Notes under the pieces: model-generated | What the model was told of the DNA's origin: nothing | Database searches by the model: none | The model's input: only the letters and a program-made list of their open reading frames with translations | Made by a program: the position numbers and the translations under genes | Source of the DNA: an uncultured Phycisphaerales bacterium | GTDB lineage: Bacteria; Planctomycetota; Phycisphaerae; Tepidisphaerales; Tepidisphaeraceae | NCBI GenBank assembly: GCA_963758525.1 | Contig: CAVWVQ010000003.1 | Span: 4,000,001 to 4,064,000, forward strand | Length of the DNA stretch: 64,000 bases | Direction: 5' to 3' | Shown: in pieces, positions 12,788 through 29,921 of the stretch | Numbering within the stretch: position 1 is the first letter of the stretch | How the letters are laid out: each line of letters opens with the position of its first letter

Positions 12788-13045
12788 ATGGCGATGGTTG
12801 CGACAATCGTTTTCAAGGGCGTCGTTCATGGAAAGACCATCGAATTGGATCACGAACCGGGTCTGCCAGACGGACAGCAGGTCAATGTGACGGTTCAGCC
12901 CACTGCCGAAAGCCGGATGCTGGCACCCGGTGAAGGGCTGCGACGTTCGTTTGGGGCGTGGGCGGAGGATGCGGACGAACTCGATCAGTTCCTTGAGTGG
13001 AATCGCCAGCGACGAAAGTTAGGTCGTGAGGAACTCGGTTCATGA
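12788..13045 (+). CDS. Putative antitoxin
   Basis: Small protein (KGVVHGKTIEL..PGLPDGQQVNV) whose stop overlaps the PIN toxin start (ATGA). Confidence 0.75.
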   Translation: MAMVATIVFKGVVHGKTIELDHEPGLPDGQQVNVTVQPTAESRMLAPGEGLRRSFGAWAEDADELDQFLEWNRQRRKLGREELGS

Positions 13046-13440
13046 GCTTCCTCCTCGACACAGATATTTGTTCTGCCTATCTCAAAGGTGATCGTTTGGT
13101 GGGGAATCGTTTTCTGCAGTATACCGGCGGTCTGCGCGTCTCAATGATCACGCTGGGAGAGCTCTATACCTGGGTTTTGCGAGCAAAGGCTTCGCCAAAA
13201 CGAGCGCAGGCGCTCATTGACCTGCTGAACGACGTGACCGTGCTGGATGTGACGTCAGACGTAGCACACAAGTTCGGAGAGATGCGGGCTGACTTGCTCG
13301 AACGGGGCTTGCCGCCCTCGGATTTGGACCTGCTAAATGCGGCCACCGCGCTTGTACATAATCTCACCTTGGTTACTCATAACACACGCGACTATCTGAC
13401 GGTTCCCGGTCTGCATCTCGCGGACTGGCTCATTCCGTAA
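13042..13440 (+). CDS. vapC: VapC PIN-domain toxin
   Basis: FLLDTDICS, ITLGEL and DLLNAATALVHNLTLVTHNTRDY. Confidence 0.92.
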   Translation: MSFLLDTDICSAYLKGDRLVGNRFLQYTGGLRVSMITLGELYTWVLRAKASPKRAQALIDLLNDVTVLDVTSDVAHKFGEMRADLLERGLPPSDLDLLNAATALVHNLTLVTHNTRDYLTVPGLHLADWLIP

Positions 13441-13476: not shown

Positions 13477-14219
13477 TCATCGCCCCGCGACAGTCGTTCT
13501 CTCTGTCGTTTCGGCGGTCTGAACTTTTCCGCGAAGCTCGGCGCGGATCGCGTTGGCGCGGTCCAGCGTCATGGAGCCGTCGGGGCTGCTGCCGACGATG
13601 CAAAAGAGCCCGCCGCCGGAGGTGAAAGAGGCGATGGGATGGCCCGCTTCGATTTGATCGAAGGACGCGTTGTTTTTCGCGGTGGCAACCATGCGAGCGG
13701 GGAGTGAGAAGACCGAGACGTCTTCCTTGCCGCGCTTGAACACCAGATGCGCCGAATCCTGCGAGCCGACGGGGCAGATCAAAGCGCCCGGAAGCTCCAG
13801 TCATCGCCGGGCGATCCCGCCAGGACGGGCCAGCCCAGACGCCGGCTCAGCACGGCGGCAATCGCCGCGTAATTACTGCGGGGAATGCCGGGCATGTGGT
13901 GATCCTCGTGGCTGCAACACTCGTCGTGACGGTCCACCAACTCAGATGCCAGCGGTTCGGGCAACGTTGCCGCGGCGACTTGCGTCGGCGGGGTGACGCC
14001 ACGCATCCGATATCCCACCAGTGCCAGGCCGATCAGCACCACAGCCGCCGCCGCGAGCGCGAACCGCAAGGCGCGTCTCGCCACGCCGGATGGCGAACGC
14101 GACGAGGCGCTGCGGACGCGCTCGATCAACTCCGGGGGCGCAACATCATCTTTCCAGGCGCGGCGGATCGCGTCCTTCAATGCACCATCATCGAACGTTT
14201 CAAAATCCTTCGGTTCCAT
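13477..14219 (-). CDS. Transmembrane anti-sigma factor (frameshift near 13787)
   Basis: Lies downstream of the ECF sigma, with APPEL.ERV, one TM helix and an extracytoplasmic domain. One extra G in the CGGG run joins the halves as FRGALICPVG...AHLVF. Confidence 0.78.
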
Positions 14220-14332
14220 CGCACTTCGCCCACTCGCCCGCGCCGCCACGTTTCGCCCCCTTGCGAACATTATCAGACACCGGGAATCAGCGCGTGCATT
14301 GCTACGGGCTCTTAACCGCTCGTGCCGCTTCG

Positions 14333-14875
14333 CTATTCCCGGATCATCCGCCTTTCCTGCCCGAAGGCGTGCAATGATTTGAGCAGCAACTGGCGAGCGC
14401 GGTGCAACCGGCTCATGACCGTGCCAATCGGAGACTCGATGGCCTCGGCAATTTCCTTGTAAGAGAAGTCTTCCACGGCCCACAGCATCAGCACCGCCTG
14501 ATATTCTTCCGGCAGAGCATGCAAGGCCTTGACCAGCTCCTCGTCCATGTTCTGAAACTGGTCGCGCACGATCGGAATGCCGGCGCCGTGGTCATCGCCC
14601 CACGTTTCCAGCGACTCGGCATCGGCTGATCGAGGCTGATGGCTTTCGCGCTCCGCCCGGCTCAAATGCACGTTGCGCATGATGCGCACGAGCCACGGGC
14701 GAATCCCATATTCCTTGAGGTCGAAGCTGTCGCGCGAACGCAGCGCACGCAGAAACGTCTCCTGCACCAGATCGCATGCACGGTCGGAGTTGCGCGTCAG
14801 CCGGCGCGCGGTCCGATAGAGCATGTCCATCTGCTCCATCGCCAGCGCCTCGAATTGAGCTTGCGAAAGTTTCAC
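14333..14875 (-). CDS. ECF RNA polymerase sigma factor
   Basis: LYRTARRLT..DLVQETFLRA, WLVRIMRN and SYKEIAEAIESPIGTVMSRLHRAR. Confidence 0.93.
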   Translation of the reverse strand: MKLSQAQFEALAMEQMDMLYRTARRLTRNSDRACDLVQETFLRALRSRDSFDLKEYGIRPWLVRIMRNVHLSRAERESHQPRSADAESLETWGDDHGAGIPIVRDQFQNMDEELVKALHALPEEYQAVLMLWAVEDFSYKEIAEAIESPIGTVMSRLHRARQLLLKSLHAFGQERRMIRE

Positions 14876-14954: not shown

Positions 14955-15088
14955 AGGGTTCAGGGTGTCAAGTTCAGCACTATTTTTCGCTGAACCCTGA
15001 ACCCTGAACCCTGAACCCTGAACCCTGAACCCTGAACCCTGAACCCTGAACCTGAACCCTGAGACCCTGAACCCTGAATCCTGAACCC
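14955..15088. repeat. Heptamer tandem array (CTGAACC)~14 with a short inverted arm
   Basis: 8 perfect units at 14990-15045 plus 6 further units, some variant. Inverted arm AGGGTTCAGGGTGTCAAGTTCAGC at 14955-14978. Confidence 0.95.
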
Positions 15089-15099
15089 GCACGCTTTCA

Positions 15100-17598
15100 T
15101 CAAAATTCGATCCGATCGTCCTGATCTTCGATGGATGTCTCTTCATCGTTTTGCACAAATGCCGTGTCGAGCGATCTTACAGTCTGTTCCTCGGAAACGC
15201 CTTCGATAAAGTTGGCATCTTCCGCCTCCCCCGGCGCGGAATCTTCCGCGATCGTCAGTTGCCGCTCCGGCGGCGCCTCTGCCGTCACGCTTTGATCCTC
15301 CGTTGCGGTCGTATCATCTTCCTGAAGTTCGGCCGAGTCGGCGCCCTCACTGATCACTGGCAATTCCCCGCTGCCGATCGTGTCAAGTTCGCCGGTTTGA
15401 TGAGTTGTGGGCGGTTGACTTGCGGGCGGCGCGGGGCTGAGGTTGGCGATGAGCGAGGTATTCAACAGCGCCGCCAGGCTGGCGACGGTCGCCCGTAGCG
15501 CGTCGTCGGAGAGGTCCGGCGCAAGATCCGTCAGCTCCGTCGAAAGCGGCCGCATCTTGTGAAGTTCGGGAATCTCCGGGCGTCCGCACAGGCGCGGAGA
15601 CGCCAATCGGTGCCGGAGCGTGTCCGAAATGGACTTCAGGCGTGCATCGACCCGGCGCAATCTTTTTGCGGCCGCGTCGAGCGCGGCATTGCAGTCCGTA
15701 TAGGTCTTGGCGTATTTCGGAGGAACGATCAGGGCGCCGGTCAGTTCGTGCCGGCTCGAGCGCGTTGCGATCGCGGCAATGCTTTCGGTTGCCTGACGGG
15801 ATTTCTGTTGCAACGCGTCGCGCTCGGCCGCAAGCCGCGGAACCAGCGCGACCGCGCGCGTCAGCAGAAAGTGGGTCGCGAGCCGGGCTTTATAACTCGA
15901 CAATTCCGTCAATTCCGCGATCAGCGCATCCCATCGGTGGTGGGCGCGCCGATGCGCCGCGCGCGCCGCCTGTTGCGCTTCTATCCCGGCGAAGAGGTTC
16001 AACATGCGCCCGCACCACGATTCCGCTTCATCCGCCAACACCGATTGCAGCTTGGGCAGCAGCGTGGTTGTCTGCTGACAGGCATATTCCAACTGCAGCA
16101 GCGGCTCGTCGACACTCTCGGCAAGCTTGATGATGATCGGCGCGGCCGCATTGTCGCCGCCAGGAAGCATTGCAGTGGCGCTCCCGTTGGCTCCGTGACC
16201 GAGCACCGAGTCGTCCGCTGCATTGCGAACCTCGATCGCGCCGCCGTTGCTCGCGCTGACAACGATCGTTGTCGCGCCCACCACGACTTGCTGCTCCAAC
16301 TGGAATGGCCCGAACGCGCCTTCCGCGGACTTGACGAAATAGCCGCCGACCGCATCGCTGTTCAGGCTCGCGATCTGCTGCTCCAGTGCCGCAGCCTTTG
16401 AGAAGAGGTCGATATATTCGCGCCACCGGCCGATCGTTCGCAGCGCCAGCACCTCGGCCCGCGCGCGCAGCAGCGCCGGCTCCAACGCCGCCATGGTTTC
16501 CGTCGCCGTATGTCGGGCAAATTCGACGTCGTCGTCCGCTTCCGCAAGCTTTTGCTTCAAATGCCGCGCGATGACGCACTCGTCCGCAAGCGCATTGGGC
16601 GGCCGCTTGAGATCGATCGAAGCCAGTTGCGCCCGCAACGTTGCGAACCCCTGCGCCGCCTCAGTGTAAGCTGTCGGCAAATGCAGCAGTGACGGCCCCA
16701 ACTCCGATGCCGATGGAATGAGTTGTGCCGCTTGCTCCGCGCTATCAAATTCCGCGGTCACCAATCCCGAGAGCTTGTCGGTTTCGACCGAGAGTTGCGT
16801 CATCGCCGGCGTCAGCTCCGCCGATTCAGCGAGCACCGTCTTCGCCCAGGCCTTGAGCCGGCGCACGTGTTCCCAGGATGGAACCGAAGCCGGGAGATCC
16901 AGGGCGCACTGATCGAATTCGTGAGCCCGATTCCGCAGCTCGGCGGGAATGTCGGGCTCCAGAAAGAGTCGCATTGCCACGCGCGTCTGATGGCCAAATG
17001 CCCGAACCTGCTCGACGTTCGGCCCCGCTGCCTCGCCGGAGAGCGCCGCGATGAGCTCGGCCATCGCGCGACGCATCTGTTCGAGCGTTGCCGGCCCAAA
17101 CCGGTTGATCCGCCCCAGCGGCTCGCCTCCCGCGTTCCGTGAGAAGTCCCCCCGCGCATCGAGAGGGAGCAGCCCCGGGTTGTCGCTCAACCATTGCAGC
17201 GCGATCATATTGACCACCGCTGCCGGGTCGTACGTCCGCCACGCCAGGTACTCGCCGATGCGTTGGATCACGTCCGCGAGGGTGTCCGCGATCTGCCAGT
17301 TGGAGGTGAAAGGCACGCCGTCCGGGGAGATGTTCGGGTGGAATACGTTGACGAGCGGCCGCACCAGCGGCGCCTGAGTCGGATACCCCGGCGGGATCCA
17401 GATCTCCATCGGCACCGCGTTCACGTATTGCAACTGCTCGTCGGCATCGAGCACCAGCGAGCGAACGCGGAAATCCACCTGATAATGCGAGGGAGGATCG
17501 CCGCGCAACGCGGAGACAGCGACAAACGGGTGATATGCGAACGCCCGGTGCGCCCGAGCCACTCGGCGCGCAGCCGCTCGATCTGGCTGTCGCTCCAC
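15100..17598 (-). CDS. Ubiquitin-conjugating enzyme (E2/UBC)-fold protein lacking the catalytic Cys, fused to long helical regions and an acidic tail
   Basis: GDPPSHYQVDF...IPPGYPTQAPLVRPLVNVFHPNI...W...LADVIQRIGEYL...N..A..W matches the E2 pattern. The expected Cys after HPNI is absent. Confidence 0.8.
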   Translation of the reverse strand: MERQPDRAAARRVARAHRAFAYHPFVAVSALRGDPPSHYQVDFRVRSLVLDADEQLQYVNAVPMEIWIPPGYPTQAPLVRPLVNVFHPNISPDGVPFTSNWQIADTLADVIQRIGEYLAWRTYDPAAVVNMIALQWLSDNPGLLPLDARGDFSRNAGGEPLGRINRFGPATLEQMRRAMAELIAALSGEAAGPNVEQVRAFGHQTRVAMRLFLEPDIPAELRNRAHEFDQCALDLPASVPSWEHVRRLKAWAKTVLAESAELTPAMTQLSVETDKLSGLVTAEFDSAEQAAQLIPSASELGPSLLHLPTAYTEAAQGFATLRAQLASIDLKRPPNALADECVIARHLKQKLAEADDDVEFARHTATETMAALEPALLRARAEVLALRTIGRWREYIDLFSKAAALEQQIASLNSDAVGGYFVKSAEGAFGPFQLEQQVVVGATTIVVSASNGGAIEVRNAADDSVLGHGANGSATAMLPGGDNAAAPIIIKLAESVDEPLLQLEYACQQTTTLLPKLQSVLADEAESWCGRMLNLFAGIEAQQAARAAHRRAHHRWDALIAELTELSSYKARLATHFLLTRAVALVPRLAAERDALQQKSRQATESIAAIATRSSRHELTGALIVPPKYAKTYTDCNAALDAAAKRLRRVDARLKSISDTLRHRLASPRLCGRPEIPELHKMRPLSTELTDLAPDLSDDALRATVASLAALLNTSLIANLSPAPPASQPPTTHQTGELDTIGSGELPVISEGADSAELQEDDTTATEDQSVTAEAPPERQLTIAEDSAPGEAEDANFIEGVSEEQTVRSLDTAFVQNDEETSIEDQDDRIEF

Positions 17599-17871
17599 GC
17601 GACCGGGATCATTGCGAACGCCGGCGGCGGCAACGCAATCCGCCCCACGACCGCGGCAGACGTATCATTCCGCATGCGAGTCTTCCAAAGGTTCAGCGGC
17701 CCGCAACTTTGACGTCACGCGCGGACCGCGCTGCATCGACGAAGCATTCCTCGTCCGCCGGTATCGCGGGGAAGAAAAACCATCGACCGAACTTATCACA
17801 GACGCGCCCGTGACACCGCGCGGCGGCGCGGTTTGTGCGTCGCTCAAGATGTGCCTATACTACCGGCCTTC

Positions 17872-17944
17872 GGGGCCGTAGCTCAATTGGGAGAGCACTG
17901 CCTTTGCAAGGCAGGGGTTGTCGGTTCGAGCCCGTCCGGCTCCA
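17872..17944 (+). tRNA. tRNA-Ala(TGC)
   Basis: GGGGCCGTAGCTCAATTGGGAGAGC, anticodon arm CTGCC-TTTGCAA-GGCAG, GGTTCGAGCCC T-arm and an acceptor stem with the G3:U70 pair. Confidence 0.96.
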
Positions 17945-20761: not shown

Positions 20762-23700
20762 ATGGCGGCAGGAACACGTCTGGCTCCCGGTCAGACTGTC
20801 GGTAATCGGTATCCTAAAGAATACTCGGCTCTGAGTCGGCGACGCAGACTGAAGCTCGCGGCGGCGGTTCTGCCATTGTCGGGGATGATCCTGAGCGGTG
20901 AATCCGCGCGGGCGCGACCAGAATCAAGGCTGACACCAACACATTAAACCTCGGTACGGACTGGATCGGTAACACCGCGCCGACCGCGGCGGACGTCGCT
21001 TCGTTCGACACCACGATTTCGGGCGGCAACATCGGCAGCCTCAGCCTGGGAGCCAACCTGAGCTGGCAGGGGCTGACGATTGGCAGCGTCAACGCGGATG
21101 CGGTGATCACCGCCGGCAACACGCTCACGCTCGGCAGCGCCGGCATTAACATGAGTGCCGCCAGCAACAATCTGGAAATCAGCTCGGGACTCACGCTGCT
21201 GGCAAATACGAGCCAGCTCTGGAACGTTCAGACGGGTCGTACGCTTACCCTGGATACCGGAACCTTCACGCGCAGCGCCGGCGCAACCCTGAATGTGCAG
21301 GGCGCGGGCACCGTCGCCACTTCCAATATCTCCAATGACGCGACCGGCATCATCGGCGCGTGGGCGAGCTTCGGCACCGGCGGATCCACGAAATATGCGA
21401 CCGTCAGCGGCGGTAACATCGCGGCTTACACCGGCACGGCAGCGGCCGACGGGTCGGGACTGACCGACACCACCGGAACTGTGAACTACGATCTGGCGAC
21501 CTTCGGGGGCACGGTTCCCGCCACCGTTTCGGCAAATACCATCCGCTACACGGGCGCTAGCGGCACGACGGCGCCCGGGGCCACCTCCTTTTCCGTCAAC
21601 GGGCTGATGAACGCGGGCAGCGGGGCATGGACCATCGGCACCAACACGCTCACGATCGGCGGCAACAAGGAGCTGATCGTCAACTCGGCGAACAATGCCA
21701 TCACCATCTCGAGCATCATCGCCAACAACGGCGGCGGAGCTTCGTCGCTGACAGCCACCGGCGGAAATATCCTCACCCTCTCCGGGGTGAACACGTTCTC
21801 CGGCGGTCTGACAGTCGATAATGGGGCCACTGTCACGGCCGGCACGTCAGCAAATTCGACGGGCTCGGGCGGCGTGGTGGATAACGGCACATTGAACCTC
21901 ACGGTCGGCGCCGTGACGTATACGGGTCTTTCCACCAGTTTGGCGGGCTCGGGCGTGGTAAACGTCACGCTGGGCACGGGAAGCAATACGACCGTCCTCA
22001 GCGGCAATTACTCCGGTTTCACCGGCACCTGGAATATCGGCGTGGGCGCCACCGCGGGGGCCGGTAAAGCGCAGATGACCGGCGCGGACAATGCGGCGGC
22101 AACCATCAACGTGCTCGCCAACGGCACTGTATATGCTTCCTCCTCAACGACGCATAACGCATCGATCGTGCTCAACGGCGGTGACACGGGTGAATCGTAC
22201 GGCCAACTCCGTCTCGAAGGCGGCGCCAACTGGGCCGGTTCCGTCACGCTCGCCGGGGCAATCACGGGGAGCGGCGACGCCTTTATCGGCGGCAATGGCA
22301 CCGGCACGATCAGCGGCAACATCGGAGAAACAGGCGGACCGAAAGTATTGAGCGTCATCGGCTCCGGGACCATGACCCTCTCGGGCTCAAATACGTATTC
22401 AGGCGGAACGGTACTCAATGGTGCCGGCACGCTGAGTATTTCCAGCGACGGAGCGGGGGGCAGCAATACCAACCTCGGCGCAACCACCTCAGGCATCACC
22501 TTCAACGGAGGTGCCCTGCAGATCACCGGCACCGCCATCACCGGCTTCGGCTCGCACACGCCGACGATTAATGCCGGGAAAGTTTTCTCGTTGGACATCA
22601 ACAACGCCGCCAACACCTTCACTTACAACACTGCAATCACGGGCACGGGCGGCATCACCAAGAACGGCGCGGGCACGCTCACCCTCGGCGGCAAGATCAC
22701 CGAGACAACCGCAAACGGCATCATCACAGTCGGTGCGGGGACGCTCAATCTCACAAACACAGGTGGCAACTCCGCCACGCTCGTGAATCTCAACGCCGGC
22801 ACGATCGACATCGGCGCGGGCAACCTCACGATTACTCCCAGCACCGCTGGAGGCAACGTCCTTCAAAGCACCGCGATCACGGGAACGGTAACGGTCAATG
22901 CCACTGGCGGCGGCGCATTGATTCTGACGCAGAACAACGCAGCTGACGGCGGAAACGTCGGCATCGCCAACGGCGGAACGCTGGCGATCAACGCGAAGAT
23001 CACTGGTGCAAACGCGTTTGAAGCATATAACAGCAACAATGGAACCGGTGTCGTCGTTCTGGGTAATGCAGCCAATGATTTCACCGGCAACGTGCTGATC
23101 AATTCCGGTGTCCTCCAGGTCACAAGTGTCGGAAATCAAAGCTCGACGACCAGCAACCTTGGAGCGGGAACGACGATCAGCTTCGGCAGCACGAGCGCCT
23201 CAACGGGCACATTAAAATATATTGGCACCGGCGAAGTCAGCAACCGCATCATCAATCTCAGCGGCAGCACTGCCGGGGGCACTCTCGATGCCTCGGGCGC
23301 CAGCGGCACTTTGGAATTCTCCAGCAATCTGACCGCTGTTGCGGGTGCGAAGACCCTCACGCTGCAAGGCTCGGGGCTCGGCAAGTTTTCCGGAAATCTG
23401 GTCAACGGCAGCGGGACCGTTGCCATTGCCAAAGGCGGTGCCGGGACTTGGACGCTGAGCGGAGCCGCAAATACGTATGGCGGCGGAACAACCGTCAATC
23501 TTGGCACCTTGTCGTTCGCGGGAGCGGGGGCATTCCCCACCAGTTCCAACCCCGTCACACTCAACGGCGGCACCTTCCAGATTTTGCAGGACGGAGCGGG
23601 CAGCGCCGGAACCATCTCACTCGGCAACGCGGTAACCGTCGCCACCGGCACAACCCTAACAGTCGCCGTCGGCAACAACACCGGAAATACTGGCAACACC

Positions 23701-26700
23701 GTGGCGTTCGGAGCGCTCAATAACGGCACCACCGCCAATAACCTGACCAGCACCATCAACTTCACCGGCGCCAACAGCTATCTCCAGTCATACACCAGCC
23801 TCGGACTCTCAGGATCGTCCGGCGGCGCGACGACTCTCGCGCCCAGCACGGGTGTAACCATTTCTGGAAATGTGACGAACCAGGAATCCGGTTCCGTTAC
23901 CGGCCACTATGACACCCTTGTCCTCGACGGGACGAGCACCGGCAATGCGATCAATGGCACCATTGCGGACAGTGGCGGTTATGCCAGCGTCGGCAACGGC
24001 GACACCCGCGTCACCAAACAAAACAGCAGCACTTGGACGCTTGCAGGCTCGAACACCTACCACGGCGCGACCACCCTGACCCTCGGTACCCTGAACCTCA
24101 ACAACAACTCCGCTCTGGGCTCCAGCGTCCTCACCGTCAACGGCGGCGGCATCGATAACACTTCGGGCACCGCGAAGACGCTGGCCAATCAGTTTATCAT
24201 CGGCGGAAGCTTCGCCGTCTTCTCAGGCGGGGAGACTGCCACCAGCAATCTGACCTTCAGCACCGCCTCAACCACGACCACGGACATCAGCAAGACGATC
24301 ACGTTGAACGGCACCGGCACGACACTGGATCTCGGGCAGATGACGCTGACCAACAATAACAACGCCGGCCGCACGCTTACGGTCAATGGCGCGGGGAACA
24401 CGCTGGTTCTCGGGGCCTTGAACCTGGACAGCGGCGGCAACACGGCAAGCACGCAAATCATCAACGGAAGCGGTAACGTAACCATCAATGGCGCAGTCGC
24501 TACCGGCACCTCCACCGTCGCACAAAGCCTCAGCTATTCCGGCACCGGCACGCTCTCGCTCGGCGGGGCAAATTCGTATGCGGGCGCGACGACGGTGAAC
24601 AGCGGCACCATGGATTTCACCGGCGGCACCAGCACCGGCAGCACGTCGCTCGTCGTTCATGGGACGACAGCCGTTCCGGCGGCGTTTAAGATCGAAACCG
24701 GTGCGTCGGAGACGATCGCCGGTGGTATTGCGATCGCTCAAGTGACCGGCGACACCAACGGCTCGCTCACCATCGCCGGCGGGACCCTGGCCGAGACGGG
24801 CGCTAACGCTTTCACCGTGGGTGACAATAATGGTGGAAACGGCGGCACCGCAAGCGGCAGCGTCACGCAAACCGGCGGCACGCTGAACCTTGGCACCGTC
24901 GGCACTCCGAGCGGCTACGCCTCTGTCGGCGCGGCCAACGTGGGTACGTACACGCTCAGCGGCGGGACCATTAACTCTTACACGACTGCCGGGTTCAACA
25001 TTGGCGACCGCACCGGCTCGACAGGCACCATGACGGTCAGCGGGACCGGCGTGTTGAATGTGCTTACCAGCGACGGACTCTACATCGGCAAAGGTGGAAC
25101 CGCCGCCAACACCAGCGCGACCGGCACTTTGAATGTGAATAGCGGCGGGGCAGTCAACACTCCCAAAATCAGCTTCGGAAATGCCGCCGGGACCACCGGC
25201 ACCAATGTCGGCACGCTCAATCTCAACGGCGGCACGCTGACGGTGGGAACCTCCGGCATCAGCAAAGTCGGCAGCATGTCCAACCCGACAATTCATATGA
25301 ACGGCGGCACGCTCAAATCGAGCGCTGCCTTCGCCCTCGGCGCCAACATCGTTATTGATGTTGATACCGGCGGCGCGTTTGTGGATACCACCGGCGGTAC
25401 GATCACCGCCAGCAGCGCGTTTCTCCTCGGCAACGGCGTGGGGGCCTTGACCCTCACCGGGGGAAATTCACTCATCCTGCCCACGGGCAACACGTATACG
25501 GGCACCACGACGATTACAGGCTCTGCCACCACGCTCAAGTTCAGCGGCGCAACCTCGCTGGTCAACAGCGTTGCAATTGGGACCACCGCCCTTTTCGACC
25601 TGAATGGCAACAGCCAGTCAGTCGCGGGGCTCAATAACGTAGCCGGGGCCGGCGGGGCAGTGATTGCAACGGGAACGGCGGGGAAAACCCTCACGTTGAA
25701 CGGCAGCGGAGCCTACAGCTTTGCCGGCGTCTATTCCGGCGGCGTCGCCGCGGGAACCTCGGGAACCGGCACCCTCACCGTCGCTCTCACCGGCGGCGGT
25801 TCGCAGACCCTCACGGGCGCAAATACGTATACGGGCGCGACAGCGGTCAACAGCGGATCGCTCATTCTCGGGAGCGGCGGCCGCCTCGCCGCGACGGCCG
25901 TGACGATTGCCAGCGGCGCGACTCTCGCCGTCACTCCCGGCGTTGCCAGCGCAACCAATGCGGTGAGCACCTCGTCGCTGGCGTTAAATTCCGGCAGCAA
26001 CTTCAGCATGGCAGACGGCGTCGCGAGCACCGCGACCGTCGGTACCACCGGCACGCTCAGCGGCGCCAACTTCACGTTTGACCTGGGTGGCAGCACCACC
26101 GCAACCGATACCCTTACGATCGGTGGCGCCGTGACCCTGGCAGCGGGCAACACGATTACGATTAACGGTTTCGGCACGACCGCCCCCACGGCTGCCAGTT
26201 ACACTCTGATCGGAGGCGCATCGGGACTCGGGACCGCCGCCGATTTTACCCTGACCAACACCAGGGTGGCGTTCAACGGCTCTTATTATCCGATTTCGCT
26301 TAGCAACTCTGCGACCGCTGAGAAACTGGTCGTTGGTGCCGCCGGCTCCGGTGCCCTCTACTGGAATGGCACGACCTCGCTCTGGAACAGCACAACAAAC
26401 TGGAACACCGATGCCACGAGCAGCACCAACGCCGGGGCAACTCCGACCGGTGCTACCGATGTCTTTTTCTCCACTACAACTCCGTCGCCGGGGAACCTGA
26501 CCAACACGCTCGGCGTCGCGACCGCAGTCAACAGCATCAATTATTTGAGTACCAGCGGCGCGGTCACCATCGGCAACAGCGGCACTTCCTATGGCCTGAC
26601 AATCGGCGCAGGCGGCATCAGCGATGCCAGCGCAAGCGCCCAACTCATCGGGACCAGCGCACAATCACCCTTGCAGCGGCGCAGAGCTGGAACAACAGCA

Positions 26701-29700
26701 ACGGCGGCACTTTGACCGTCACCGGTGGCGTGACTGCGGGCGCCAACCTGCTTACCTTTGCTGGAAGCGGAGCGACCACGATTTCTGGAGCGACCGCTTT
26801 CACAACCAGCGTCGGCGCTACCGTCAACAGCGGCGCCGGCGCGGTGACGATTTCCTCGCCCATCACCGTTGGCGGAACTTCCACGTTCACCAACAACAGC
26901 GGCAACACGCTCGCCCTCGGAGCGGTAACCGCCGCAGGCAACGCCCTCACCGTCACGGGTTCCGGAGCGGCAACCCTTGCATCGCTCAGCAGCACGGGCA
27001 ACGTGACGTTCAGCCAGACGGGCGCAATCGGAGTCACGGGCAACATCAGCGGAACGTCAACCCTGACAACAAGCGGCGGAGCCTTGACGCTGGGTGGAGC
27101 CACCAACGTCGTCAAGACGCTCAACATCAACAGCACCGCCGTCGTGGATATTGGCTCGGGCAGCCTTTCCATCAGCAATTCGGGGAGCACGACGCTCACA
27201 TCGTCCACCGGCGGCACTCTCAACGCCACGGGCGGTGGTGCGATCACCATCTCCACCGCCGGCGGCACAAACTACGGGGACAACAAAGTGGCCGCCGGGA
27301 AAACGCTGACGGTCAATGCCAAACTAACCGGTAGTGGAGGTTTCGAGATTTTCGGCGACACCGGAACGTTCGTCCTGGCCAACAACGCCAATGACTTCAC
27401 CGGAGACATTCTCTACAGCAATGCCGGCACGATCAGCGTTTCCTCGATTGGCAATGCGTTAGCGGCGGGCGGAATTGGCGCGGGAACCAACCTCTTATTC
27501 ACTTCTAACGGAACATTGGCCTACACGGGCGCGGGCGAGAGCACCAATCGCGTCATCCAGCTGACCGGCGGTGCAAACATCGGCGGAACCATCGACGCTT
27601 CCGGCACCACAAGCAGCGGCAGCCCGCTGAAGTTCACCGCCAACGTGCAAAACAACGCGTCGGCCGCGGGAACCAACCTGCTCACGCTGCAGGGCAGCGG
27701 GTTCGGAGAAATCGGCGGCACATTAACCGATAAGACGGGCGCTCCGACCTTCAAGACCGGAATCAACAAACTGGGCACGGGCACGTGGACCCTTTCGGGG
27801 GCAAACACATATACGGGCGTCACGGCGATTGCAAACGGCACATTGATCGTGACCGCGGCCGGAAATCTTGGCGCTGGCGCACTCTCGATGGGCACCGGCT
27901 CCTCCGGCAGCATCGGCACGGTTGGCAACCTCACTCTGAACAACAGCACGACGGTGAGCAGCCTTGCGGTTCAATCCAATACGTCGGATACGACAACATC
28001 GACGAACATCGAGCAACTCCTCATCGCCAGTGGCAACACCCTGACGGTCAGCGGGGCCGCAATCGTTGGGGTCACGGGCGGCGCCTCCGCGACCAACACG
28101 GCGTTGAGCACCGGCGCCACGGCCGGCGCGGGCGGCACTTTGACAGTCAACAACTCCTTCACGGCCGGAATCGCGGCGACCAGCGCCGTCGGGAACAAGA
28201 CCGTGGTAGACCTTTCGGGCCTGAGCGCCTTCAATGAAAATCTGGTCGGCGGATCGCTGCTCGTTGGGTTTGGTCAGGACGATGGGGCGACGATGACCCT
28301 GGCTGCCACCAACACGATCAACGTGGCCACGATTTCGGTCGGCGACAGCAACGGAGCGAACTACGACCTGGCGACCGGCGCGGTGAGCACCCTGAATCTC
28401 GGGACCGGCGTGAACACGCTTCACGCCAGCACGATCACATTGGGCACCGGCAAGGGCGGCGGCGTGTTGCAGTTTGCCGGCGGTAACGGTTCGGTGGCCA
28501 TTGATGGGACCGGAGGCTCGGGTACGTCGAATATCACGCTCGGTAACGCCAGTTCGGTCACCTCTCAGGGAGGACCGAGCGGACTGTTGTTGGCCGGCCA
28601 TAGCGCGACCGTCAGCGCGGGCACGGTAACGGTTGCTGAAAAGACCGGCAGCGTCGGGGGCACCGTCTCCGCGTCGGTAACATTCGATACCGGAACCTTC
28701 AATGCCGCCAGCATTCAGATGGCGCTGAGCACCGGCGCATCGGCTGCCACCGGAGGCGCCACCGGCACCTTCACCGTGGGCGGGCCGACCGCCAATTCTG
28801 CTGCCACCGGCATCGTAAACGACAGCGGCAACTTCATCCTCGCCGGGAATACCAACTCGACCGCCGGCGCGACCGGCATCTCGACGGGCTCCCTGATCAT
28901 CAACGGCGGCACCGTGAATGTGAACACCGCCGCCTCCGCGACGGGCGGCATCTTCGATACAACCACCACTACAACCGGAAGCAGCGCCACCACCCTGACG
29001 CTGGCCGGCGGCACTCTCGATCTTCACGGCGGTGTCATTGGTGGCACCACGGTGGGCGCCGGCAAGAAAAATATCGGCACCCTCAACTTCAAGAGCGGCA
29101 CCCTTCAGAATGTGGCCGAGATCAACGGCGGCGCCACGGCTCTGACCAAGATCACCGATGGCACCGCGACTGCCGGAACCCTGGTCCTCGCGGGAGTAAA
29201 CAGCTACTCGGGCGGAACGACGATCACCGCCGGCACACTGCTGGCGAACAGCACCGACACCACCAACGGGTCGACCGGCTCCGGAGCCGTATCGGTCAGC
29301 GGCGTCCTTGCCGGAACCGGCGTGGTCAAAGGGGACATCACCGTAAACAGCGGCGGACACCTCTCCGCCGGGGCCGGCGTCCCCCCGAATGGGACCACCG
29401 CGACCGCACCCGGCCAGCTTACAGCGAACACCGGGACCACGGCATTCGCCAACGGATCGAATTTCGACGTGAAGGTGAACGATGTTGCTGGCGCTGCCGG
29501 GACCAACTGGGACCAGGTGCTGATGAACCTTCTCTCCGTCAGCGGGACAGACACGATCAACCTGTACGGATTGACTGCCGGCAACGTCGCCGGGCCGACG
29601 CCCAACTTCAACGGCACCACCCCATTCACGATAACGATCGCAACGTTGACGGGCGTCACACAGAGCGCGCTGCAGACCGACATTGCGGCCCTGAGCCTGA

Positions 29701-29921
29701 ACACCAGCAATTTTACCGCCAACAATCCCACCGCCTTTGGCGACGGCTTCAGCCTGGTCGCGGTCGGGGATACGTTTGGCGGCAGCTTCCCGAACGGCTC
29801 CGACCTGCAGATCAATTACAACGCCACTCCCGAGCCGGGGACGGCGATGCTGGTTCTTGGTGGTGTTCTGCCGATGCTGATGCGCCGTCGCCGTCGGTCC
29901 CGGCAACTGCCCGCTCAATAG
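20762..29921 (+). CDS. Giant (~3050 aa) autotransporter-associated beta-strand-repeat protein with PEP-CTERM; frameshifts near 20913 and 26662
   Basis: RBS GGAG and a signal peptide. Many G.GTLTLSG.NTYSG.T repeats. Ends TPEPGT-hydrophobic-RRRRR. The frames join as ..ARA/ATRIKADTNTLN and ..ITLAAAQSWNN. Confidence 0.88.

Follow-up and report, generated by a model that had tools for sequence, protein, structure and literature searches.

The window analysed here is a stretch of 64,000 nucleotides from an uncultured Phycisphaerales bacterium of the family Tepidisphaeraceae (GenBank assembly GCA_963758525.1, contig CAVWVQ010000003.1, forward-strand positions 4,000,001 to 4,064,000). Our subject is one gene on its minus strand, whose product combines a head domain with the fold of ubiquitin-conjugating enzymes (E2s), from which the catalytic cysteine is missing, with a long rod predicted to be helical, which carries an all-β insert, and with an acidic tail (Table 1). 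The gene represents a real, conserved and apparently undescribed family of pseudo-E2 proteins. An original prediction made from the window had called it an orphan, with no gene for a ubiquitin-activating enzyme (E1), a ubiquitin-like protein (Ubl) or a JAB protease in view. This is correct locally, as genome-wide matches to E1, JAB and Ubl genes all fall outside the window; the description does not extend to the genome, which holds a complete Ubl operon 1.9 Mb away that also encodes RING, FHA and transmembrane (TM) domains.

Table 1. Positions of the features discussed; window coordinates unless a genome or locus prefix is given.
Feature	Coordinates	Strand	Remarks
Full pseudo-E2/rod/tail gene	15100..17675	-	~858 codons; single frameshift in present assembly
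True N-terminus: Pro-rich segment, conserved Trp, most of E2 helix 1	17556..17675	-	frame differs from the long reading frame
Frame break at short G run, one base	17553..17555 (near 17554)	-	probably long-read assembly error
E2/UBC-fold domain without catalytic Cys	17158..17594	-	HPN 17332-17340; catalytic-position codon (Pro96) 17311-17313
Predicted antiparallel helical rod, ~550 residues, helices up to ~70 residues	15463..17121	-	family-specific
All-β insert, 7-8 strands, YF..GxFGPF hairpin	16123..16344	-	no GYF_2 match
Disordered acidic tail	15103..15440	-	window protein ends with terminal Phe
Tandem heptamer repeat	~14990-15090
tRNA-Ala(TGC)	17872..17944	+	divergent, 197 bp upstream of gene
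ECF sigma factor and probable anti-sigma gene	13477-14875	-	anti-sigma gene split by frameshift
Small gene, then PIN-domain gene	12788-13440	+	VapBC-like pair
PATR-repeat autotransporter-like gene	21103-29921	+	two overlapping reading frames
Ubl-E1-JAB(TM)-TM/FHA-FHA/RING/TM-E2 operon	G000:C3:2133967-2139231 (L011:9967-15231)	-	genome-wide matches
Second ThiF-like gene	G000:C3:4568443-4570837		split in two

The open reading frame (ORF) first assigned to the gene, 15100..17598 on the minus strand, exists and encodes 832 amino acids, although its start at 17598 is wrong. Full-length homologues have a Pro-rich stretch at their start, together with a conserved Trp and helix 1 of the E2 fold, and in the window this homologous N-terminus starts at an ATG at 17675 in a different frame. 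Thirty residues of the corresponding ORF (17421..17675) align to the N-terminus of the homologue P0003 with a score of 135, compared with 13 for the first 17 residues of the long ORF itself. The one-base frameshift is probably an assembly error, since the same genome has a break of similar context in its E1 gene and a shift of frame, relative to intact homologues, in its TM-FHA gene. It is unlikely that the frameshift is real and that the copy in this genome is a true pseudogene, which in any case would leave the family-level reading unaffected. The break does take helix 1 out of the long ORF, and it lies outside the segment spanned by the reads of one sequencing run (~16451-17067 only). Nevertheless, the frame stays open over the other 815 codons, which share 63-68% identity with homologues that are intact, the genome has breaks of the same kind in two of its operon genes, and rpoB is split in other few-contig assemblies. 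A promoter-like site in the right place was not found at the gene, and terminator-like sites occur only at chance level. A short tandem heptamer repeat lies right behind the stop codon.

The E2 pattern read from the motifs of the N-terminus is borne out by a match to Pfam UQ_con (E 2.8e-4, below the curated cut-off), by a match to Ubc13 (E 6e-7) and by structure prediction. An AlphaFold model of the head made on P0003, which is 68% identical to the window protein, has a mean predicted local distance difference test score (pLDDT) of 88.3. Modelling and structure search of the N-terminus, which the original prediction had proposed as a check, returned a UBC fold: residues 20-168 of P0003 resemble E2s, with UBE2S as top match (Z 13.0, root-mean-square deviation (rmsd) 3.0 Å, 136 residues aligned). 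FTS follows at Z 10.8 and the UEV-like domain of VPS37A at Z 8.9, UEV denoting the ubiquitin E2 variants; canonical E2s score above UEV-type rows, and TSG101 is not among the 50 matches listed. In the model the E2 core is followed by one further helix (residues 152-160). The genome's own Cys-bearing operon E2 aligns to the head without gaps over 132 residues at 30% identity (E 1e-19), and the operon-type E2 and pseudo-E2 profiles match each other with a probability of 99.9. The alignments show that the head domain descends from an E2 of the planctomycete operon type. In quick trees of the E2s, 21 pseudo-E2 rows form a single group on a long branch (support 99-100), separate from other Cys-less E2 variants, which suggests that bacterial E2 has been inactivated repeatedly within the same E2 family. 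Cys-less variants with other C-terminal parts are found elsewhere in the E2 tree, in one place P0122, P0143, P0163 and P0165, in another P0104, P0127, P0128, P0131, P0133 and P0152, and in a third P0120, whose Cys-less E2 is fused to an FHA domain.

A word-indexed search recovered 15 proteins, 14 of them besides the window's own, and an exhaustive search 681 proteins at E 0.001 or better, of which the best 150 were listed. The family alignment comprises 62 rows, hand-picked for long coverage from 165 proteins plus the window's own stretch. The missing catalytic cysteine was read correctly from the window protein, which has Pro96 at the catalytic position and no Cys in the domain, and aligning the homologues extends this to the family, with Cys in none of 56 rows at the catalytic column. 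A domain devoid of Cys altogether is not a family trait, as 29/54 homologous E2 domains carry one elsewhere, mostly in one strand position (20/54). Fifteen residue types occur at the catalytic column, including Ser in five rows and Tyr in seven, and no conserved Ser, Tyr or Cys was found at or beside it in the pseudo-E2 alignment. All 21 operon-type E2s, drawn from carrier loci and from G090, retain the catalytic Cys. With the fold retained, the catalytic Cys gone and no substitute nucleophile, the label pseudo-E2 is strongly supported.

Loss of the nucleophile is accompanied by a redistribution of constraint. The HPN motif is nearly invariant (H in 55/56, N in 56/56). Relative to 28 active E2s, 31 of their conserved positions are relaxed, taking in the YPR and NIKSPL loops as well as the ICxGDH active site; a further 21 are common to both and 12 are newly conserved. 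Most of the new positions belong to helix 1 and the hairpin next to it (Q26, E33, W34, R35, R39, H44, L77 and Y79 in P0003 numbering), with His44 invariant (53/53). In five close pairs, including G006/G081, the ratio of nonsynonymous to synonymous substitution rates (dN/dS) is 0.02-0.12 for the head and 0.10-0.32 for the rod, so that the dead domain is the most constrained part of the protein. Saturation affects three deeper comparisons, with values of 0.31-0.35 and 0.47-0.60 and, for the head, one that is undefined. As judged from codon substitutions, the close pairs show the head to be under purifying selection.

The remainder of the protein, described originally as mostly helical, does model as long antiparallel helices (residues 166-717 of the window protein, pLDDT 90.3). 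No Foldseek match at E 0.001 or better was obtained for the rod against the PDB and a viral structure library. The best match in a wider search was to spectrin repeats (Z 11.3, rmsd 8.7 Å, 275 residues aligned), a range that is generic for helical bundles. One Pfam Spectrin_Anc-1 match (E 0.005) occurs among the 62 rows and, other than UQ_con, no Pfam family matched in more than one of them. A helical stretch of SdeA, the top PDB sequence match of the rod profile (E 0.008), was treated as generic. The ESM Atlas gave no usable match for rod or insert, a result that indicates neither absence nor novelty. Going by the predicted models, the rod with its β insert appears to have no clear solved relative or known fold. 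The rod contains a near-invariant basic cluster (K591/R593/T596/R602). Cys517 is partly conserved (43/62), with Val in its place in P0003 and the window protein, and Cys550 occurs in 28/62 rows only; a TM-like stretch is present in just one row. The insert had been termed GYF-2-like, a designation that we abandon: Pfam GYF_2 matches 0/62 members at E 0.01, and none for the insert at E 10. A GYF_2 domain consists of a β-hairpin and then a helix, whereas strands, not a helix, come after GPF in both the P0003 model and that of the window rod. Weak DH-PH and BAR-PH Foldseek rows suggest that the predicted insert may be PH-like.

The C-terminal tail is acidic, as originally proposed, and disordered, with 24% D/E and 4% K/R over 43 tails. 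An acid-flanked hydrophobic patch falls within the last 30 residues of 14/34 tails, compared with 3/34 for the preceding 30 residues; shuffling the tails gave a mean of 2.3 and a maximum of 8 in 1000 shuffles. The regular expression for the patch was composed after the tails had been inspected and finds no match in the window protein. We take the patch to resemble SUMO-interacting motifs (SIMs). The available part of a source on SIMs gives no consensus motif (PMC12687455).

The fusion is carried by 23 of 101 genomes of the family to which the window belongs, likely the Tepidisphaeraceae. Another 46 of the 78 non-carriers have an E2-domain match only, the unpublished genome G002 being counted among these and in the Ubl tally. 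A profile built from the rod alone gave no strong match among 215 genomes from other families of the class (one 50-residue match, E 5e-5) nor among 400 from the phylum (a single match, E 8e-5), which shows that the pseudo-E2/rod fusion is restricted to one bacterial family. Longer fused forms were not found among 7988 candidates, which is weak evidence. In a tree of 22 fusion proteins, with G062 left out, congeners are mostly sisters and the broad groups resemble those of an RpoB tree, for which G013, G043, G048 and G093 gave no RpoB and G063 was excluded. Such a pattern agrees with vertical inheritance and repeated losses and is not that of a mobile island. Conservation of protein neighbours does not go beyond 3-4 of 20 loci, and tRNA-Ala(TGC) also lies just upstream in 6/19 other homologous loci. 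On the comparison of loci and trees, the fusion is a stand-alone gene that is apparently vertically inherited. PADLOC and NCBIfam profiles gave no match for P0001 or P0015. Directly downstream in the window are genes for an extracytoplasmic function (ECF) sigma factor and a probable anti-sigma factor, neither conserved beside the homologues. Further away lie the VapBC-like pair and, on the other side, the large autotransporter-like gene, whose overlapping ORFs possibly reflect another frameshift.

The Ubl of the separate operon is YukD-like, ends in Ala-Gly and has a weak SUMO-like Pfam match (E 0.0066). It was found in 64/101 genomes of the family and is thus common, not sporadic. A divergent second operon type, with a Ubl 53-56% identical, occurs in G075, G006 and G080 (L056, L065 and L067), G080 having both. 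In the genome of the window, a second ThiF-like gene lies near a JAB gene outside the Ubl operon. Across 20 loci the fusion gene is never in or adjoining the Ubl operon; in G061 a distance of ~9.7 kb separates it from the JAB gene, which lies downstream on the same strand. The Ubl is present in 18/23 carriers, an enrichment that is not significant (p 0.14), and among genomes at least 90% complete the counts are 6/7 carriers against 41/66 non-carriers (p 0.41). All 23 E2-only loci checked carry the catalytic Cys. The cognate pathway that had been postulated does exist in the present genome and in 19/23 carriers; its machinery was not found in the other four assemblies, G081, G009, G013 and G074 (71, 94, 86 and 78% complete), in which neither Ubl, cognate E1 nor active E2 was detected. 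A five-genome clade of the fusion-protein tree (support 1.0) is without the main-type operon and consists of G075 and G006, where only the divergent type was found, and three of these four assemblies. If misses are independent, the probability that incompleteness explains the missing main operon in all five is ~3e-5, and that it explains the missing of any operon in the three is ~0.009. The tail patch occurs in 8/15 carriers with an operon and in 0/4 without (p 0.10), the latter having short tails (10-53 residues).

Our preferred interpretation, to which we assign a probability of about 0.5, is that the E2 fold has been repurposed, by loss of catalysis and gain of a new face on helix 1, as the head of a non-catalytic, two-ended adaptor in which the rod would be a rigid spacer and the tail would supply a short motif. 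An operon-type E2 would have been duplicated, and its catalytic and E3-facing surfaces would then have decayed while a new putative binding face became fixed on helix 1 and the adjacent hairpin. The predicted rod may act as a rigid spacer, and the hydrophobic patch with acidic flanks that closes the tail may provide a second, short docking motif. The protein would hold partner proteins instead of passing on a ubiquitin-like tag. The putative partner of the head is likely to lie outside, or to be additional to, the Ubl cascade, since constraint on the head persists in genomes that yielded no cascade. Several observations weigh against this interpretation. Packing against the rod, and not the binding of a partner, could be the role of the conserved residues on helix 1. 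Co-occurrence with the active E2 is high, a second, Cys-bearing E2 being present in 19/23 carriers against an operon E2 in 46/78 non-carriers (Fisher p 0.048, with kin not independent), and ~3.5 misses are expected among carriers from incompleteness alone against the four seen. The five operon-poor genomes do not form a single clade in the RpoB tree, from which G013 is missing, and so may represent two losses. In addition, dN/dS for G000/G005 is higher and saturated, at 0.31 and 0.47.

The main rival is that the fusion protein serves the YukD-like Ubl-E1-JAB-RING-E2 pathway as an unlinked accessory, acting as a reader or regulator that binds the Ubl or Ubl conjugates, possibly via the SIM-like tail motif, or that forms a pair with the active E2 as Mms2 does with Ubc13. 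We regard this as possible, if rather improbable. It draws on the direct descent of the head from the operon E2, on the frequency of the Cys-bearing E2 and the Ubl among carriers, on the enrichment of the patch at the tail end and its occurrence in operon carriers, on the SUMO-like match of the Ubl and on the proximity of the G061 gene to a JAB gene. Conversely, the gene never adjoins the operon, many genomes have the operon E2 without the fusion, the Ubl enrichment is not significant, the catalytic cleft and YPR loop are not conserved, and the link of tail to operon comes from a post hoc expression that the window protein does not match. A tie of the fusion protein to the separate Ubl operon is possible. 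Of the earlier proposal of a non-catalytic reader or scaffold for a Ubl pathway, the non-catalytic part stands; against the putative pathway role are the position of the gene outside the operon, the relaxation in the head of surfaces that active E2s conserve, the 4/23 carriers whose assemblies lack the machinery and the 46/78 non-carriers that have the operon E2. A more specific form of the accessory idea, a bacterial Ubl reader independent of the eukaryotic UEVs, in which the dead E2 head and SIM-like tail motif, at opposite ends of the 550-residue rod, would capture proteins tagged with the YukD-like Ubl and deliver them to a partner, we consider doubtful.

That the protein has kept enzymatic activity, be it with a nucleophile other than cysteine as in the Bub E2s or with a relocated rod Cys in a HECT-like manner, is extremely improbable. 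Near-invariance of HPN, invariance of His44 and partial conservation of Cys517 would be consistent with residual chemistry, and the Bub E2s are described as employing an invariant Ser oxyester (PMC11601596). However, the 15 residue types at the catalytic column, with Ser in only 5/56, argue against such a route, neither that column nor the positions beside it hold a conserved Ser, Tyr or Cys, and both rod cysteines are variable, Cys517 being Val in P0003 as well as in the window protein. A bacterial scaffold for membrane remodelling, similar to TSG101 in ESCRT-I, one of the endosomal sorting complexes, or to BAR proteins, is also very unlikely. The joining of a pseudo-E2 to long helices, the VPS37A match and the Foldseek rows for BAR-PH and DH-PH proteins would suit it, but those rows have E 0.04 or worse and TM-scores of at most 0.14 against the query, canonical E2s outscore UEV-type rows, the loci have no conserved neighbours and TM-like stretches are all but lacking. 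The model also has a C-terminal helix after the E2 core, whereas TSG101 is described as lacking both C-terminal helices (PMC8428793).

Among known systems the closest is the planctomycete operon E2 itself, with which the head shares gapless homology across the whole domain and the GDPP, FHPN, W and LPxD motifs. The fusion differs from it in the absence of Cys, an eroded active-site surround and gateway loop, the new helix-1 face, the fused rod and tail and a locus outside the operon. TSG101/Vps23 and Mms2/Uev1 likewise have the E2 fold without the catalytic Cys, and TSG101 also carries a helical region. HPN is lost in Mms2 and TSG101. The fusion family retains HPN and appears to have originated from a bacterial E2 independently of the eukaryotic UEVs. 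The original analogy with TSG101 is accordingly a weak one, given the bacterial-E2 descent, the retention of HPN and the C-terminal helix, and a rod that is predicted to be an antiparallel bundle. Cys-less E2 folds known from eukaryotes include TSG101, whose UEV is without the two C-terminal E2 helices, and AKTIP/FTS, a UEV that keeps them and binds a non-ubiquitin partner, as far as the accessible text of one source describes them (PMC8428793). AKTIP/FTS has only the E2 fold in common with the fusion and is without a fused rod.

In bacteria, an RWD-like 'inactive' Cys-less E2 was predicted for 6E/Bub operons (PMC1779556, in the portion available), and the E2 of these operons was later reported to use a Ser oxyester (PMC11601596). 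The bacterial Cys-less E2 fold is common to BubB and the pseudo-E2 family, whereas the invariant Ser and an operon with E1 and Ubl are features of BubB and neither is found in the family (Ser in 5/56; 20 loci). Bil and Bub operons differ in make-up, according to the available part of PMC11601603. In contrast with anti-phage Ubl systems (Bil, Bub and CBASS Cap2), the fusion has no PADLOC or NCBIfam match and no defence-operon context, being a stand-alone gene beside a tRNA. Spectrin and plakin rods provide the best fold match for the rod at a generic level, and the fusion rod differs in its inserted β domain.

The pseudo-E2/rod fusion is not described in the literature searched or in Pfam, NCBIfam or PADLOC, although the supplements of Burroughs et al. 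2011 could list the family. Ubl-E1-JAB-RING-E2-type operons have been noted in Planctomycetes (PMC4197634, citing Burroughs et al. 2011) and, going by the sections available, rank with the bacterial systems that most closely approach ubiquitination in eukaryotes (PMC3417536, PMC4197634); a described reader or accessory for them was not found in the literature searched. The conversion of a duplicated E2 into a scaffold-borne putative binding module would mean that the step seen in the eukaryotic UEVs and AKTIP was also taken in bacteria, and the E2 tree suggests that it occurred there more than once. The fusion may represent either an effector of the Ubl tag or a case of the E2 fold leaving the pathway altogether. 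If the protein is indeed a Ubl reader, it would constitute a downstream effector of the still uncharacterised planctomycete E1-E2-RING-JAB system.

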